A stretch of 4,239 nt of DNA from a virus (lineage: Duplodnaviria; Heunggongvirae; Uroviricota; Caudoviricetes). The stretch's first letter is position 1. Each line of letters starts with the position of its first letter. The DNA lies in IMG/VR virus record IMGVR_UViG_648276671_000009, positions 1 to 4,239 of that record; one strand, written 5' to 3'. Shown here in pieces: positions 1 through 4,239 of this stretch. The notes beneath the pieces are model-generated. The model ran no database searches, had not been told where the DNA came from, and saw only the letters and a list, made by a program, of their open reading frames with translations. A program made the translations under genes and the position numbers.

Positions 1-246
1 CCGAGAGTATACTGGAAGAACATGGACTGGATAGTCGCCCATAAAGGACAACTGGTGGAGCGGTTGATGCGGCTTAAAAAATTTCCCCGAACGCTTTACG
101 ATCGTAAAAAGTTGAATATCCTGTTAAGAGTGGTTACTACGCCACACAGCTTAAACCCGCCGATGAGCGGGTTTTTTATGCCCGAAAAGTGGCACAGGGC
201 GTTAAACGCGCTGGTGGTTGCGAATGCAGGCCTCTCAGTTTGCTGA
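1..246 (+). CDS. hypothetical protein, 3' portion (5' end outside window); possibly a late-gene regulator (Q-like) by position only
   Basis: Frame 1 is open from position 1 with no in-frame stop until TGA 244-246; the track ORF 22-246 is the internal Met. Followed by an AT-rich spacer, a promoter-like element and the tRNA array, as downstream of Q in lambdoid phages. No diagnostic motif recognised, so the product is a guess. Confidence 0.45.
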   Translation, partial: PRVYWKNMDWIVAHKGQLVERLMRLKKFPRTLYDRKKLNILLRVVTTPHSLNPPMSGFFMPEKWHRALNALVVANAGLSVC

Positions 247-376
247 TTTTTTAGACAAGATTTATTTAGCCAGGCGTATCCAAAATAAAAATAATCGTTA
301 TATATGAGAATTTTTTCTTATTTTTAGAAACAAGAAAAATATATGCGGATATTTACGATTGCTGACGTTATCTTTA

Positions 377-405
377 TTGAGCTCGTTCGAGGGGATTCGT
401 ATTAT
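377..405 (+). promoter_or_regulatory. candidate sigma70 promoter for the tRNA array (possible late promoter pR' analogue)
   Basis: TTGAGC (377-382), 17-nt spacer, TATTAT (400-405); predicted start near 412, about 25 nt upstream of the first tRNA. A -10-like AATGAT lies at 421-426 in the initial transcribed region. Confidence 0.35.
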
Positions 406-436
406 ACGCCGCGCCAGCGCAATGATGCGACGGGCA

Positions 437-513
437 GGCCCTTTAGCTCAGTTGGTCAGAGCGAGCGACTCATAATCGCCAGGTCGCTGGTTCAAATCCA
501 GCAAGGGCCACCA
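437..513 (+). tRNA. tRNA-Ile2 type, anticodon CAU (lysidine type; automated tools often call it tRNA-Met)
   Basis: 77 nt with cloverleaf: acceptor GGCCCTT/AAGGGCC, D-arm GCTC..GAGC, anticodon loop CTCATAA (CAT at 471-473), T-loop TTCAAAT, encoded CCA. Close to my recollection of E. coli ileX. Confidence 0.85.
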
Positions 514-514
514 A

Positions 515-587
515 CCGCCACTAGCTCATCGGGAAGAGCGGCAACTAAATGTTGTAGTACGAGGTTCGAGGCCCCGGTGGCGGTCCA
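515..587 (+). tRNA. tRNA-like element with aberrant anticodon arm (pseudo-tRNA or non-canonical tRNA)
   Basis: 73 nt: perfect 7-bp acceptor stem CCGCCAC/GTGGCGG, D-arm GCTC/GAGC, T-arm with GTTCGAGG, encoded CCA. The anticodon arm GCAAC-TAAAT-GTTGT has only a 5-nt loop, so no canonical anticodon can be assigned. Confidence 0.5.
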
Positions 588-589
588 GT

Positions 590-665
<76 letters not shown>

Positions 666-668
666 TAT

Positions 669-743
<75 letters not shown>

Positions 744-1108
744 GCATTTGAAACAAGCCTTATTGTATTGTGGCACTGGCGTATTTTTTTATTACGTGTG
801 AGCAGGTTGTATTGAAAAAGCATTCTGTTCTCTGGCTATGATTTGAGGCCGGGTGTAGCCTCAGTGCTGATTTTTTTACGGCAGCAGAATGGTGCATTAT
901 CGGTGGAGATTTTGTATTTCCTGGCAGGGGCGGTGATGCATCATTCTGGTGTTGTAAAAGCACCGCAGAGGCGTTCCTCAGTGCGAGGGTGGTTTAAAGA
1001 GTCGGTTTAGCGGGAAACCACAGTATCCATACAGAACGGAATACTTCGGGAGGCACCCGACGCCTCGATTCTATTACAATTAAAAATTCATCCTTTGCAT
1101 TGACCAAC

Positions 1109-1132
1109 CGCCTCCACCAGGCGATTTTTTTA
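1109..1132 (+). terminator. putative rho-independent terminator
   Basis: Stem CGCCT (1109-1113) / AGGCG (1119-1123), loop CCACC, then A plus T7 (1125-1131). Confidence 0.45.
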
Positions 1133-1223
1133 TTCTGAATTCAGTTTCTCCAGGCTCGCTACGGCGGGCCTTTTTCATATCCGCGCCACGCCCGGCGCAC
1201 ATCAAAAACCACAGAGCCTTTCA

Positions 1224-1293
1224 GGGGTGAGCTTACGGGATGGTCAGTGTGACTTTCTCTGTGGGCTGGTCACCCCCGGGCGCAGGCTCACCC
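1224..1293 (+). promoter_or_regulatory. repeat-rich leader upstream of the TerB-like gene (candidate operator or RNA structure)
   Basis: Inverted repeat GGGTGAGC (1225-1232) / GCTCACCC (1286-1293); direct repeat GGGATGGTCAG (1237-1247) / GGGCTGGTCAC (1263-1273); short complementary pair GTGAC (1249-1253) / GTCAC (1269-1273). The RBS AGGA 1301-1304 lies just downstream. Confidence 0.3.
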
Positions 1294-1312
1294 ACTAAAA
1301 GGAAAAGTCACG

Positions 1313-1738
1313 ATGTTTGGTATTTTCAAAAAGAAAGCACGTAAAACTTTCACCGAAGTTAAGAAGTTTGAGAACCGCGACGCAGTGGAGGCGACCGTCT
1401 GGGGCGCGTATTCCATTGCATTTGCCGACGGCACCTGCGATGCGAAAGAAATCGCGGTACTGGAGAAAACCATTGCAGCACTTCCTGCTTTTGCGCCGTT
1501 CTCCGGTGAGATTGCACAAATGAGTGCAAATATCCGCGCCCGTTATGAAGCGTCGCCGCGTTCAGCCAATGCCGAAGCCCTCCGTCAGCTGGCTGATGTC
1601 GCCGGTACTGATGACGCGGTGAATGTGCTGTGCCTGTGTCTGGATATTGCAGACCAGGATGGCATTGGTCCGGATGAAGAAGTGCAACTCAAGAAAATTG
1701 CTCAGGCGCTGCAGTTACCACTGGAGCAGTACCTGTGA
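1313..1738 (+). CDS. TerB-like domain protein (tellurite-resistance TerB fold), 141 aa
   Basis: ATG 1313 preceded by AAAAGGAAAAG RBS. Two copies of the TerB-type helix-pair motif: IAFADGTCDAKEIAVLEKTIAAL and LCLDIADQDGIGPDEEVQLKKIAQAL. Typical E. coli codon usage; overlapping ORFs in other frames look like junk. Confidence 0.7.
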   Translation: MFGIFKKKARKTFTEVKKFENRDAVEATVWGAYSIAFADGTCDAKEIAVLEKTIAALPAFAPFSGEIAQMSANIRARYEASPRSANAEALRQLADVAGTDDAVNVLCLCLDIADQDGIGPDEEVQLKKIAQALQLPLEQYL

Positions 1739-1887
1739 AAAGTGCGCGCCTTGTGCTGGCTGCCATCCTGCTGTTTCTGGTAGTGGCGGTGGATTTCACC
1801 GGACGGCTGATGTCGGTGCTGGCAGATGGTGTGCTGGTGGCGGTGGTGCTGGTCGTGATCCGGCCTTTACTGCGCAAGCCTGAATAA
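1735..1887 (+). CDS. small hydrophobic two-helix membrane peptide (50 aa), translationally coupled to the TerB-like gene
   Basis: GTG 1735-1737 overlaps the upstream stop TGA 1736-1738 (GTGA); GGAG at 1722-1725. Translation VKSARLVLAAILLFLVVAVDFTGRLMSVLADGVLVAVVLVVIRPLLRKPE, stop TAA 1885-1887. Below the track's length cut-off. An alternative ATG start at 1810 would give a 25-aa product. Confidence 0.45.
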   Translation: MKSARLVLAAILLFLVVAVDFTGRLMSVLADGVLVAVVLVVIRPLLRKPE

Positions 1888-1896
1888 CACCACACA

Positions 1897-1919
1897 AAAG
1901 GCATCTGCGGGTGCCTTTT
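1897..1919 (+). terminator. putative terminator hairpin (first of a tandem pair)
   Basis: 9-bp stem AAAGGCATC / GGTGCCTTT with tetraloop TGCG, ending in TTTT. Confidence 0.45.
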
Positions 1920-1938
1920 ACGGGGTGTTGTTTTTTAC

Positions 1939-1960
1939 GGGCCGCTGGTGGCCCTTTTTT
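1939..1960 (+). terminator. rho-independent terminator
   Basis: Stem GGGCC (1939-1943) / GGCCC (1950-1954), loop GCTGGT, followed by T6 (1955-1960). Confidence 0.7.
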
Positions 1961-1978
1961 ATTTACAGGAGAAAAAGT

Positions 1979-2373
1979 ATGTCTGAACCCTTGTCCGGCT
2001 CCGGTACGGCTGCGGCGCTCGGTGGGGCGACGGTATTCGGGCTGTTTACCGGGACGGATTTCGGGATTGTGTTTGGCGCGTTCGCCGGGGCGTTATTTGT
2101 GGCAACGATCCACAGGCAATTTCAGCCTGGCGGGTGGCAGCGCATTTTCTGGTGTCGTTCATTATCGGCGTGCTGGGCGCAGAGGTGCTGGCATCCTTGC
2201 TGGTAAAGCATACGGAGTTTGACGGTGCGCCTGTCGACGCATTGTGTGCCGTGCTGGTTTCGGTGGTGTCGGTGAAGATTCTGTCGTTCATCCACCAGCA
2301 GGATATCGCATCACTGGTGTCCGGCCTGTTCTCCCGTCTGCGTGGCGGAGGAGGTGGCGGCAATGTTAAGTAA
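1979..2373 (+). pseudogene. class I-like holin (3 TM) interrupted by a 1-nt frameshift in a G-run near 2129-2136; intact gene would encode about 131 aa
   Basis: ATG 1979 with AGGAG RBS. Frame 2 gives MSEPLSGSGTAAALGGATVFGLFTGTDFGIVFGAFAGALFVATIHRQ and then W/C/R-rich nonsense. Frame 1 from about 2134 gives two clean helices (AAHFLVSFIIGVLGAEVLASLLV, ALCAVLVSVVSVKILSFI) and a tail ending RGGGGGGNVK, stop TAA 2371-2373. The span is 395 nt, which is 396 (132 codons) with one added base; the junction is ggcgggtgg. Confidence 0.6.
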
Positions 2374-2638
2374 CCTTCCCGGATTGCTGAATGTGGCGGT
2401 ATGCACGGTTATCGTGCTGACGCTCTTTTTTTATCGTCGTCGTGACTCCAGACATAAACCGCTGATGTCATGGCTGGCCTGGCTGCTGATGCTGCTGTAT
2501 GCCTTTGCACCCCTCAGCTATCTGTGTGGTCGCCCGTTAGCAACGGGCTGGCTGGAAGTGTTTTTTAATCTGCTGTTCTGCGTGCTGGTGATACGTGCAC
2601 GCGGGAACGTCGCAAGAATCTTTCCATTGTTGAGGTGA
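2363..2638 (+). CDS. holin-like / antiholin-like membrane protein (3 predicted TM), 91 aa
   Basis: ATG 2363 preceded by GGAGGAGG; overlaps the upstream stop by 11 nt. Hydrophobic segments LLNVAVCTVIVLTLFFY, LMSWLAWLLMLLYAFAPLSYL and WLEVFFNLLFCVLVI, with a basic C-terminus. Stop TGA 2636-2638 sits 2 nt before the endolysin start. Confidence 0.7.
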   Translation: MLSNLPGLLNVAVCTVIVLTLFFYRRRDSRHKPLMSWLAWLLMLLYAFAPLSYLCGRPLATGWLEVFFNLLFCVLVIRARGNVARIFPLLR

Positions 2639-2640
2639 AT

Positions 2641-3018
2641 ATGTCGGGTAAATTCAGATTCAGCCGTCGTAGTGAAAAAAATCTGGAGGGCGTCAAACCA
2701 CAGCTGGTTGCTGTCGTTCGCCGTGCGCTGGAACTGTCGGAGGTTGATTTCGGTATTACGGAAGGCCTGCGCACGAAAGAACGCCAGAAGCAGCTGGTCG
2801 CGGAAGGGAAAAGCCAGACCATGAACAGCCGCCACCTGACCGGTGATGCGGTGGATGTTGTTGCCTGGGTTGGCAGTCAGGTGTCATGGGACTGGCCTCT
2901 GTACGAGAAAATCGCGCAGGCATTTAAGCAGGCTGCCGCAGAGCTGGGAACTGCCATCGAATGGGGCGGGGACTGGCGGACGCTTAAAGACGGCCCACAT
3001 TTTCAATTGAAGCGATAG
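2641..3018 (+). CDS. endolysin, peptidase M15 family (L-alanyl-D-glutamate endopeptidase, T5 Lys-like), 125 aa
   Basis: ATG 2641 with GAGGTG RBS. Zn-peptidase motifs SRHLTGDAVDV, WGGDW and DGPHFQL (His/Asp/His ligands). Lies immediately after two holin-like genes. Confidence 0.9.
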   Translation: MSGKFRFSRRSEKNLEGVKPQLVAVVRRALELSEVDFGITEGLRTKERQKQLVAEGKSQTMNSRHLTGDAVDVVAWVGSQVSWDWPLYEKIAQAFKQAAAELGTAIEWGGDWRTLKDGPHFQLKR

Positions 3019-3035
3019 CCTGCAAAACATACAGG

Positions 3036-3058
3036 GCCGCCATGAGCGGCTTTTTTAT
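3036..3058 (+). terminator. rho-independent terminator after the endolysin
   Basis: Stem GCCGC (3036-3040) / GCGGC (3046-3050), loop CATGA, then TTTTTTATT. Confidence 0.65.
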
Positions 3059-3088
3059 TGCTCAAAAAAAGAAAGAACGGAGGTACGT

Positions 3089-3370
3089 ATGTACGCACTG
3101 AAAAAAATCACGGTAACGGAAGATGGGCGTCAGGTTGAAGAAGTGCATGTTCTGGGGAATATGTATCGCCTGGAATTTTACCCGCGCAACACTCACCTTG
3201 CTGCCCGGGTGGAGTATTGCCGGGATGGAAATGTGCCATGCATTTCGGTGGAAAAAACGGATGAAGCCTACATCACCACGCTGGCGGGTGACACGGTGCG
3301 TTGTATCTGTCGCGGTAACAGTAAAGCCCGGGATGAAATAGCAAAATGTCGCAACACTACTGATAAATAA
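3089..3370 (+). CDS. hypothetical Cys-rich soluble protein, 93 aa
   Basis: ATG 3089 with GGAGG at 3079-3083 (5-nt spacing). Five Cys (44, 51, 72, 74, 87) including a C-x-C; no TM segment or signal peptide. Not recognised as Rz. Confidence 0.7.
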   Translation: MYALKKITVTEDGRQVEEVHVLGNMYRLEFYPRNTHLAARVEYCRDGNVPCISVEKTDEAYITTLAGDTVRCICRGNSKARDEIAKCRNTTDK

Positions 3371-3376
3371 AAAGTC

Positions 3377-3409
3377 AAAACCCCGGCTGGGGGAACAGTC
3401 CGGGGTTTT
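3377..3409 (+). terminator. strong, probably bidirectional, terminator
   Basis: Perfect 10-bp stem AAAACCCCGG (3377-3386) / CCGGGGTTTT (3400-3409) with a 13-nt loop; U-rich 3' arm on the + strand and a T-run also follows on the - strand. Confidence 0.7.
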
Positions 3410-3443
3410 GTGTATTCTGACCTTGAGTAAGGCAAGGAAGAAC

Positions 3444-3626
3444 ATGGAGAAGTATAAACGAATTCTGTTGAGGTTGACTATGAAAAACGGCCTTGAATTG
3501 AAAGCGCCTGTAACTGATGACATCAGCAGAGCGGTGGCTTTTGCTATTAAGTGGGTGGCGGTTGGCATCGCCGTGTCTCCGATGCTGTATGGGCTGGCAA
3601 AATTGATTGTTGCTCTGAAATCGTGA
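3444..3626 (+). CDS. small membrane protein with C-terminal TM helix, 60 aa (alternative start ATG 3480 gives 48 aa)
   Basis: ATG 3444 after AAGGAAG; the alternative ATG 3480 follows GAGG with 6-nt spacing. Hydrophobic C-terminus AVAFAIKWVAVGIAVSPMLYGLAKLIVAL. Stop TGA 3624-3626 is 8 nt before the next start. Confidence 0.5.
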   Translation: MEKYKRILLRLTMKNGLELKAPVTDDISRAVAFAIKWVAVGIAVSPMLYGLAKLIVALKS

Positions 3627-3634
3627 GTGGTGAT

Positions 3635-3817
3635 ATGACGCGAAAACACTGGACACACAGAATGCCGCGAACGGCGGCGAAATGGGCACTGGTAGCGATA
3701 CTGCTGCCTTTTTTATTGGTGGGGTGCGTCAGCCTGGATAAGGCGCGTCAGGTTATTCACATAGCAGAGCAGGTCTGCGAAATTGTCGACAGTGTCCGGC
3801 AGTGTATGCAGAACTGA
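3635..3817 (+). CDS. small predicted lipoprotein, 60 aa precursor with about 30-aa mature part (alternative start ATG 3662)
   Basis: Signal peptide with positive n-region, hydrophobic core WALVAILLPFL and lipobox LVGC; mature part CVSLDKARQVIHIAEQVCEIVDSVRQCMQN has 3 Cys and is not proline-rich, so unlike Rz1. Confidence 0.6.
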   Translation: MTRKHWTHRMPRTAAKWALVAILLPFLLVGCVSLDKARQVIHIAEQVCEIVDSVRQCMQN

Positions 3818-3829
3818 ACGCCTGTGAGC

Positions 3830-3889
3830 GCAGAATATTTTGCTGAAAAATGTCGGTGATTACGCTGTCCGGAAAGCATGAAATTCTGC
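3830..3889. repeat. imperfect 15-nt inverted repeat separated by about 30 nt (candidate operator or RNA stem-loop)
   Basis: GCAGAATATTTTGCT (3830-3844) pairs with AGCATGAAATTCTGC (3875-3889) at 13 of 15 positions. Confidence 0.4.
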
Positions 3890-3987
3890 ATTTGTGGTCA
3901 TTCAATAAAATAAATTCTTTCTGCTGCTGTAAATACACAAATGTGAACCGAACCCGGTGCGGCGACGGGCTTCGATATGAGGAGACG

Positions 3988-4239
3988 ATGATGGAAAAAA
4001 CAGAAAACAAACCGATTGTAATTGGTGCTGATGCTGCTCCGTTTAAGTTTGAGTTGTCTCAACTGGTGGAGATGCGCATCAGTGATGAATGGGGTGAGGT
4101 TAAAGCCCGCGCGCAGTATGCGGATGGCGAAAACCAGTACTTACTCCACTACAAAGCTGCTGATGGTCGCGCCACGACGGAGTGGTTTGGTGAGTCAATG
4201 CTGGAAGCAACAGAAGATGATGATCATCCGGGCTGGTCC
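3988..4239 (+). CDS. hypothetical acidic protein, N-terminal 84 aa (3' end outside window)
   Basis: ATGATG 3988-3993 preceded by GAGGAG; frame open to the window end. Begins MMEKTENKPIVIGADAAPFKFELSQLVEMRISDEWGEV. Absent from the track because no stop is reached. Not similar to lambda Nu1 as I recall it. Confidence 0.6.
   Translation, partial: MMEKTENKPIVIGADAAPFKFELSQLVEMRISDEWGEVKARAQYADGENQYLLHYKAADGRATTEWFGESMLEATEDDDHPGWS

Follow-up and report, generated by a model that had tools for sequence, protein, structure and literature searches.

Phage-encoded transfer RNAs (tRNAs) have recently come to be seen as counter-measures to tRNA-cleaving immunity, and every characterised case decodes. 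In the published accounts of such rescue tRNAs, phage T5's tRNA-Lys(UUU) acts against the PARIS nuclease AriB, and phage tRNA-Thr(UGU), including that of phage 21, acts against P2-OLD; these RNAs keep a 7-nucleotide (nt) loop and the anticodon of their target, act by decoding, and carry base substitutions or a shortened stem (PMC11464382, PMC12409363, PMC12445682, PMC10264068). Here we describe a tRNA-like gene at positions 515-587 of a 4,239-nt stretch of viral DNA (Caudoviricetes; positions 1 to 4,239 of IMG/VR record IMGVR_UViG_648276671_000009, hereafter the window). Like the rescue tRNAs, the element is phage-borne and its changes are concentrated in the anticodon arm. Unlike them, it has a truncated loop and a triplet that is not conserved: where rescue tRNAs keep the anticodon of the targeted host tRNA across relatives, its lineage carries 19 different loops. 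Rescue by decoding is therefore unlikely. Sequence comparison gives good support to the view that the element belongs to a conserved, previously unannotated family of non-canonical tRNA-like genes, and it points to a second, non-decoding phage use of the tRNA fold. A full-text literature search returned no description of short-loop tRNA-like genes; queries with argN and ileZ were uninformative.

The element is a cloverleaf with an encoded CCA, both by direct reading and by ARAGORN (Table 1), and its minimum-free-energy fold is this cloverleaf closed by a 5-nt anticodon loop. A preliminary description of the locus had reported a TAAAT loop in place of the usual 7 nt, which is borne out, as is the tight spacing it gave: one nucleotide (A514) follows the end of tRNA(CAT) at 513, and 2 nt precede the start of tRNA-Thr at 590. 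Its statement that acceptor stem, D arm, T arm and CCA are perfect holds for the fully paired acceptor (7/7) and D (4/4) stems and for the CCA; the T stem contains an A562·C574 mismatch, which is kept in relatives. The D loop (ATCGGGAA) includes G18 and G19, and the variable region is AGTA (4 nt). Among the canonical tRNA features, the 7-bp acceptor stem, D arm, T arm, G18G19, T-loop TTCRA (R, purine) and G53-C61 are present. The canonical anticodon loop (7 nt, U33, purine 37) is absent; the loop has 5 nt and, when forced to 7 nt, places U at position 37. ARAGORN, to which the preliminary description had looked for a check, does call the element a tRNA, but as tRNA-Phe(aaa), a label obtained only by opening C545-G551 into a 7-nt loop at a cost of ~4.5 kcal/mol. 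The Rfam tRNA model (RF00005; gathering threshold 29 bits) leaves the element unmatched on the + strand even at E<=10 in the 93-nt stretch searched, and scores the three neighbouring tRNAs at 66-74 bits. The fold z-score of the element, -1.7, is weak by itself, so the case for more than a chance structure rests on homology and conservation.

The anticodon-arm segment (window 536-564) recurs exactly in 11 viral contigs, has two copies in the source genome and is seen in many independent assemblies, which excludes a singleton lesion or a sequencing artefact. We searched for relatives with a pattern made of fixed parts of the D and T arms (28 body positions), allowing 11-23 nt between them. It matched 26 viral contigs, 13 metagenome contigs and six species-representative genome assemblies, namely Citrobacter braakii, Cedecea neteri, Yokenella regensburgei, Pseudescherichia vulneris, Rosenbergiella sp. 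and an unclassified Enterobacteriaceae bacterium; a looser pattern (15-34 nt) returned the same set and one new locus. In every match the stem RCAAC/GTTGT encloses 5 or 6 loop nucleotides, and no lineage member has a 7-nt loop, although the patterns permitted arms of 11-23 or 15-34 nt. A sister variant with loop CCAGGT occurs in 5 of 5426 complete Escherichia coli genomes, where it lies unannotated in RefSeq between tRNA-Ile and tRNA-Thr. Altogether the short-loop lineage comprises about 50 loci, from viral contigs, six enterobacterial genera, metagenomes and these 5 complete E. coli genomes; INPHARED, a cultured-phage collection, holds no record with it.

To remove ascertainment bias, a second scan placed its anchors solely in the two flanking tRNAs. 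It yielded 113 arrays with 31 distinct inserts, each of them either a canonical tRNA-Arg(UCU) or a short-loop gene; badly decayed short-loop copies were not seen in this neighbour-anchored sample. The scan also added a subclade with T stem CGGGG/CTCCG, and in the sister subclade G52·U62 takes the place of the 51:63 mismatch. Explicit cloverleaf parsing resolved 50 distinct family sequences into 31 short-loop and 19 canonical members; stem-pair counts were taken from this parse, as the MAFFT family alignment misregisters the 3' anticodon strand between short-loop and canonical members. Three subclades and 19 loop variants make up the short-loop lineage. Eight loops have 5 nt (TAAAT, TTAAT, TGAAT, TTTAT, ATAAT, ATGAT, GTGAT, CAGGT) and eleven have 6 nt (CACGAT, CACGGT, CATGGT, CGTTAT, CACAGT, CATAGT, CCAGGT, CCAGAT, CTTGGT, CTTGGG, CTCAGT), following the rules NNN-R-T (R-U in the RNA) and C-NNN-R-T, respectively. 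Such loops amount to normal Y32-U33-NNN-R37-N38 loops (Y, pyrimidine) minus one or both 5' pyrimidines. The lineage exposes an annotation blind spot: RefSeq leaves an unexplained gap of ~78 nt at its position inside arrays, and the identities that ARAGORN assigns to its members (Phe, Leu, Ser, Pro, 'Stop') are misleading.

Divergence was measured within the neighbour-anchored sample, in the 69 pairs of short-loop arrays whose flanks can be aligned over >=1 kb. Per site it averages 0.072 in the flanks, which are kb-scale and mostly coding, 0.018 in the body of the element, 0 in the anticodon stem and 0.30 in the loop, so that the body diverges 4-fold less than the flanks and the loop-to-body ratio is ~16:1. 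By parsimony the loop, with at most 6 sites, requires at least 20 changes, compared with 18 for the 68 body sites (P=1e-12) and none for nine anticodon-stem sites (P=1e-8), and nearly all links in the network of the 19 loops are single steps. Across the 31 distinct short-loop sequences, 96% of stem cells are paired in the same cloverleaf, with one compensatory change in the D stem (G10-C25 to A10-U25). In these relatives the anticodon stem varies at position 541 (A/G) only, the CCA is invariant, and the discriminator base is split between A (22 sequences) and T (9). Free change is confined to the loop triplet where an anticodon would lie, position 27, a single D-loop base and the discriminator. 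In some arrays (L007 and L037) the neighbouring tRNA(CAU) has decayed by many substitutions and the element is intact. Body conservation as an artefact of the search pattern is excluded, since it persists in the neighbour-anchored sample. Nor is the lineage a recent sweep, because it spans three subclades, 19 loops and several genera, with flanks diverging by 7.2% on average among comparable pairs and by up to ~13% in individual pairs. These substitution patterns indicate that the body is under strong purifying selection and that the loop triplet is unconstrained, possibly accelerated; we claim no mutator mechanism. A claim of loop hypermutation was dropped, the ratio of loop to kb-scale flank being 1-2.5x in a first, smaller sample and ~4x in the larger neighbour-anchored one.

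The ancestry of the element can be read from its position. In lambdoid prophages the array runs tRNA-CAU, X, tRNA-Thr(UGU), tRNA-Gly(UCC) between the Q antiterminator and the lysis genes, and the occupant of slot X, between the ileZ-type tRNA(CAU) and the next tRNA, varies from phage to phage: many E. coli prophages have a canonical tRNA-Lys(UUU), Stx2 phages a tRNA-Arg(UCG) (argN) and many other viral contigs a tRNA-Arg(UCU). These genes are 78-84% identical to the full element and have in common with it the slot (after the ileZ-type tRNA(CAU), downstream of Q), the acceptor stem, the D stem and the CAAC/GTTG anticodon stem. Its T stem with the A51·C63 mismatch recurs in the Lys and Arg(UCG) types, whereas the canonical Arg(UCU) relatives have perfect T stems. 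All of them have 7-nt loops with a normal anticodon and are called as tRNAs by ARAGORN, and they are annotated in RefSeq or GenBank at most loci checked, the Lys type being unannotated in some records. The short-loop lineage differs from them in its 5- or 6-nt loops, G at T-loop position 60, a flipped 27:43 pair, the lack of a fixed 'anticodon', a D loop of 8 rather than 9 nt and a variable loop of 4 rather than 5 nt. The element thus shares the location of the slot-X family and homology in the acceptor, D and T arms and anticodon stem, and lacks a canonical Arg- or Lys-reading loop. On these comparisons it descends from a canonical slot-X tRNA of lambdoid-prophage arrays, and we regard it as a derived member of the argN-type family that fails the tRNA-defining feature of the anticodon loop; three loops have been shortened in the lineage (anticodon 7 to 6 or 5, D 9 to 8, variable 5 to 4). 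The preliminary description had allowed that homologous prophages might carry a normal 7-nt tRNA here and that this copy might be a singleton lesion. The first is the case (Arg-UCU, Arg-UCG, Lys-UUU) and the second is contradicted by some 50 loci; the conservation of the short loop among tRNA clusters of related prophages, which it had left to alignment, emerges as a length fixed at 5-6 nt across the whole lineage.

Canonical members of slot X have features of their own. The Lys(UUU) tRNA of some E. coli prophages (L001-L003, L154) has C33 rather than the universal U33 (loop CCUUUAA), and its positions 36-41 read UAAGUU where the AriB site of host tRNA-Lys reads UAAUCA; the sequence suggests a PARIS-resistant rescue tRNA. 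In a Stx2 phage, argN (Arg-UCG; L004 1578-1654) combines a G3·U70 pair with the A51·C63 mismatch. G3·U70 is the classical alanine identity element, and the real charging identity of argN may be worth checking. A solitary 82-nt family member lies ~650 nt downstream of a canonical CAU-Lys-Thr-Gly array (L024 1469-1550 (-), L038 3739-3820 (-)). Its acceptor, D and T arms are intact, its anticodon arm reads ATAACA-CGTAT-TGTTGT and is accompanied by a long variable region, and ARAGORN labels it Val(aac). It represents a second, independent remodelling of the anticodon arm in the slot-X family.

The explanation that we favour as a whole, if tentatively, is that the element is a selectively maintained, non-decoding tRNA-like RNA that acts through its body and, we infer, as a decoy. 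It would be co-transcribed with its array neighbours and, in the manner of a tRNA, released by RNase P and trimmed at the 3' end. It would then act through its tRNA shape rather than by reading codons, most likely by keeping tRNA-targeting factors occupied as a stable mimic of tRNA that cannot be cleaved. With so short a loop the ribosome could not use it, which would render a random 'anticodon' harmless, and the RNA might also be a poor cleavage substrate. The loop length never returns to 7, which fits selection against a random anticodon on a well-folded, possibly chargeable tRNA body. The leading candidate factors are anticodon-arm nucleases of anti-phage systems, because their known targets adjoin the element (Thr-UGU) or fill slot X in relatives (Lys-UUU). 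Host tRNA-Thr(UGU) is described as the main, lethal target of P2-OLD in P2-lambda interference, and it is rescued by Thr(UGU) tRNAs of phages, lambdoid phage 21 among them (PMC12445682). For PARIS AriB the prime targets are described as Lys(UUU) and Thr(UGU), and the authors of that study raise a possible non-productive competition between viral and host tRNAs (PMC12409363). Since both its extra, host-identical Thr(UGU) copy and the Lys(UUU) that relatives carry in slot X are published P2-OLD or PARIS AriB targets, the array resembles a counter-defence cassette. Considerably more doubtful is the further proposal that the short-loop genes of slot X form a novel class of anti-defence RNA in phages and prophages, ribosome-invisible, uncleavable decoys that neutralise anticodon-arm nucleases, with the triplet tracking nuclease specificity; PARIS AriB, OLD-family Toprim nucleases, PrrC/RloC and tRNase colicins would be the nucleases concerned.

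Several points weigh against a decoy acting through its body. The element's anticodon stem has neither the CNG motifs described for P2-OLD (PMC12445682) nor the UAAUCA site described for AriB (PMC12409363), and binding to either nuclease, if any, would have to run through other contacts. A stoichiometric decoy needs high abundance to work against a catalytic nuclease. A factor that ignores the loop leaves unexplained its R-U ending, the leading C of the 6-nt loops and a rate of change above that of the flanks, whereas, for a factor that reads the loop, the triplets have no obvious match to known nuclease targets. On the side of sampling, part of the collection was found with patterns that fix 28 body positions, and the neighbour-anchored sample shares its anchors with one array clade. 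The readings proposed in the preliminary description beyond decay, a selected anticodon-loop variant, a tRNA-like decoy and a processing element, are all compatible with the data.

A cleavage-resistant tRNA that still decodes is unlikely. On this reading the shortened loop has lost the 5' pyrimidines (32/33) beside the cut site of anticodon-loop nucleases and retains N34-36, R37 and U38 stacked on the 3' side; the anticodons of different phages would rescue an attacked host tRNA, suppress stops or shift frame. The variable triplet does lie exactly at the anticodon position and is followed by a conserved purine, as in all tRNAs, canonical family members swap anticodons (UCU, UCG, UUU) on the same body, and a loop evolving faster than its flanks is expected under diversifying selection on specificity. 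Several triplets are real anticodons (UUU, GUG, GUU, ACG, CAG, UUG, UAA, UGA), and a 6-nt loop could still present positions 34-38. The registers themselves speak against decoding. A forced 7-nt loop has U at position 37 in every case and U at position 33 in just 4 of 8 variants. In the NNN-R-U register the triplets ATA, ATG and ACA begin with A34, which is avoided in bacteria outside Arg-ACG, and TTA and TCA would pair with stop codons; both are avoided by genuine bacterial decoders. No member has a 7-nt loop, U33 is absent, and the 5-nt loops have no nucleotide to bridge the turn, while the closing C-G pair would have to be opened at the cost given above. Identical bodies carry either A or U as discriminator, an odd finding if the amino-acid identity were fixed, and the element goes unrecognised by the Rfam tRNA model. 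The loop appears unlike a bacterial anticodon loop in any register, for which reason the supply of a depleted isoacceptor, also considered in the preliminary description, is unlikely, and the element most likely does not decode. Readings of the triplets as codon mimics, as complements of neighbouring anticodons or as known nuclease targets gave no consistent pattern and were dropped.

We consider it improbable that the element is a processing scaffold, which has lost decoding and kept its fold so that RNase P cuts at its own 5' end and at that of tRNA-Thr separate a packed array with 1-3 nt spacers. The 1- and 2-nt spacers are too small for other endonuclease sites, conservation covers the acceptor stem, T arm, elbow nucleotides and CCA, and closely spaced E. 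coli tRNA operons are separated by RNase P alone. However, RNase P does not need an anticodon arm, yet the stem shows no changes against at least 20 in the loop, and trimming of the upstream tRNA would be easier if its trailer were unfolded. That upstream tRNA(CAU) decays in arrays where the element stays intact, and neither the fixed loop length nor the conserved R-U is accounted for.

A decaying pseudogene, as the preliminary description had put first, is very improbable, and we reject this reading on the strength of the substitution patterns. It would have a loop deletion kill a slot-X tRNA, with the apparent conservation due to recent spread or to hitch-hiking with functional neighbours. 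Canonical 7-nt relatives in the same slot, an apparently stepwise shortening (7 to 6 to 5) and a T stem with one non-Watson-Crick pair agree with it, and genuine decaying Lys-type copies exist: the Lys-type slot-X gene of E. coli 08-00022 (L153 3078-3154), unannotated in RefSeq, has lesions in its D and T stems and is a real decaying copy, in contrast to the intact short-loop lineage. Like prokaryotic tRNA pseudogenes and gene fragments, the element fails tRNA covariance models and has no usable anticodon loop. But such pseudogenes decay throughout and are lineage-specific, whereas the element keeps an intact cloverleaf in several genera; its lineage shows neither relaxed constraint over the whole gene nor sporadic, lineage-restricted occurrence. 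The body of a dead gene should change at the rate of its loop, rather than at a ratio of ~16:1 with an unchanged anticodon stem, and should not diverge 4-fold less than mostly coding flanks. The spread over three subclades, 19 loops and several genera at the flank divergences given above, the compensatory stem change and a loop length that stays within 5-6 nt all argue against decay.

Least probable of all is a charged non-ribosomal tRNA, acylated by an anticodon-independent synthetase and kept from EF-Tu by its weak T stem, with the aminoacyl group used outside translation or the RNA serving as a sink or sensor: the CCA and acceptor stem are invariant and a non-Watson-Crick pair is conserved at 51:63 or 52:62, the T-stem region that tunes EF-Tu affinity, but there is no Ala, Ser, Leu or His identity set (3:70 is G-C, and the long variable arm and G-1 are lacking), the discriminator is not fixed, and no linked transferase gene was seen in the window. 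Its precedents are the cell-wall tRNA-Gly of Staphylococcus and tRNA-Other of Bacillus cereus, which have selected roles outside decoding and T-stem pairs that weaken EF-Tu binding; these have 7-nt loops and are demonstrably aminoacylated, whereas the loop of the element is short.

A non-decoding tRNA-like RNA has broader parallels in the tRNA-like domain of transfer-messenger RNA (tmRNA), the bacterial Y-RNA-like YrlA, mascRNA and viral 3' tRNA-like structures, in which a tRNA-shaped acceptor/T/D core with RNase P and CCA-type ends is put to non-decoding use. These RNAs replace the anticodon arm with other modules, whereas the element keeps a 5-bp stem and shortens only the loop. No tmRNA was found in the window by ARAGORN, and the element has no sequence or model match to curated tRNA-like families; in Rfam it gave no match to YrlA, and its sole + strand match was to mascRNA at 11.3 bits against a threshold of 42.5. 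For CAAC-N5/6-GTTG we also considered a boxB-like or other protein-binding hairpin, an att-site core and a restriction-modification palindrome; these were set aside, as the stem is ancestral to the canonical tRNAs of the family and none had specific support.

Table 1 Coordinates of the element, its parts and the surrounding array in the window.
Feature	Position	Strand	Remarks
Element, tRNA-like gene, 73 nt, 5-nt 'anticodon' loop	515..587	+	short-loop lineage, slot-X (argN-type) prophage tRNA family
Acceptor stem CCGCCAC / GTGGCGG	515-521 / 577-583	+	7/7 paired
D stem GCTC / GAGC	524-527 / 536-539	+	4/4 paired
Anticodon-arm equivalent, stem GCAAC / GTTGT	541..555 (541-545 / 551-555)	+	G541·T555 wobble and 4 Watson-Crick pairs
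Loop TAAAT (UAAAU), 5 nt	546-550	+	546-548, hypervariable triplet; 549-550 (A, T), conserved R-U
T arm, stem CGAGG / CCCCG, T loop TTCGAGG	560..576 (stem 560-564 / 572-576; loop 565-571)	+	A562·C574 mismatch (51:63)
Discriminator T584, then encoded CCA	584..587	+	direct reading
tRNA with anticodon CAT (ileZ-type, Ile2-like or Met), first array gene	437..513	+	ARAGORN; Rfam tRNA 71.8 bits
tRNA-Thr(TGT)	590..665	+	ARAGORN, Rfam; 100% identical to host chromosomal tRNA-Thr(UGU)
tRNA-Gly(TCC), last array gene	669..743	+	ARAGORN, Rfam
Sigma-70-type promoter-like site TTGAGC-17-TATTAT, ~30 nt upstream of first tRNA	377..405	+	consensus match only

Homologues of the tRNA(CAT) gene are annotated as tRNA-Ile in RefSeq. 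The tRNA-Thr(UGU) sequence of the window is found identically in 5420 of 5426 E. coli genomes, and the host gene is one that we take to be thrU; the array gene is thus an extra copy of a host tRNA targeted by P2-OLD and PARIS rather than a resistant variant. A gap of 3 nt separates it from tRNA-Gly. Elsewhere, array copies of tRNA-Thr(UGU) with changed 3' anticodon-stem strands were seen at L035, L119, L132 and L145, and L145 has a Thr-like gene with an 8-nt loop; it is possible that these altered copies are escape variants from anticodon-stem nucleases. In Salmonella records of the collection searched, a tRNA-Tyr is annotated beside matching Thr and Gly tRNAs.

The promoter-like site of Table 1, a match to the consensus, is likely to be the promoter of the tRNA array itself. 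Most related arrays have a conserved TTGCRT-17-TGTGTATCAT (extended -10) that ends ~9 nt ahead of the first tRNA. Window positions 107-180, upstream of the array promoter, form a strong hairpin resembling an intrinsic terminator (AAACCCGCCGATGAGCGGGTTTTTTAT), with a weak, sub-threshold Rfam match of the Trp-leader type; as the array lies downstream of Q, the hairpin may be a late-operon terminator. The protein neighbours in the window are a TerB-like protein, DUF3927, holins and an M15 endolysin. A linked protein partner of the element among them was rejected, as the same genes also stand beside Lys-type arrays.

The window matches contig GL884382.1 of NCBI assembly GCA_000176655.2 at 100% identity. 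In this source contig the four-gene array and ~350 nt upstream of it are tandemly duplicated with a period of 833 nt (L243 1131-1598 and 1964-2431), and the window contains the second copy. The duplicated 309-nt arrays are 100% identical, and their upstream parts only 71-97%. At window position 2109, within a gene at 1979-2373, a single T is deleted relative to an otherwise identical read-assembly contig (L244), which splits a Phage_holin_8 gene into overlapping open reading frames at 1911-2222 and 2134-2373. The missing T may reflect a homopolymer error in the draft assembly and not a true frameshift.

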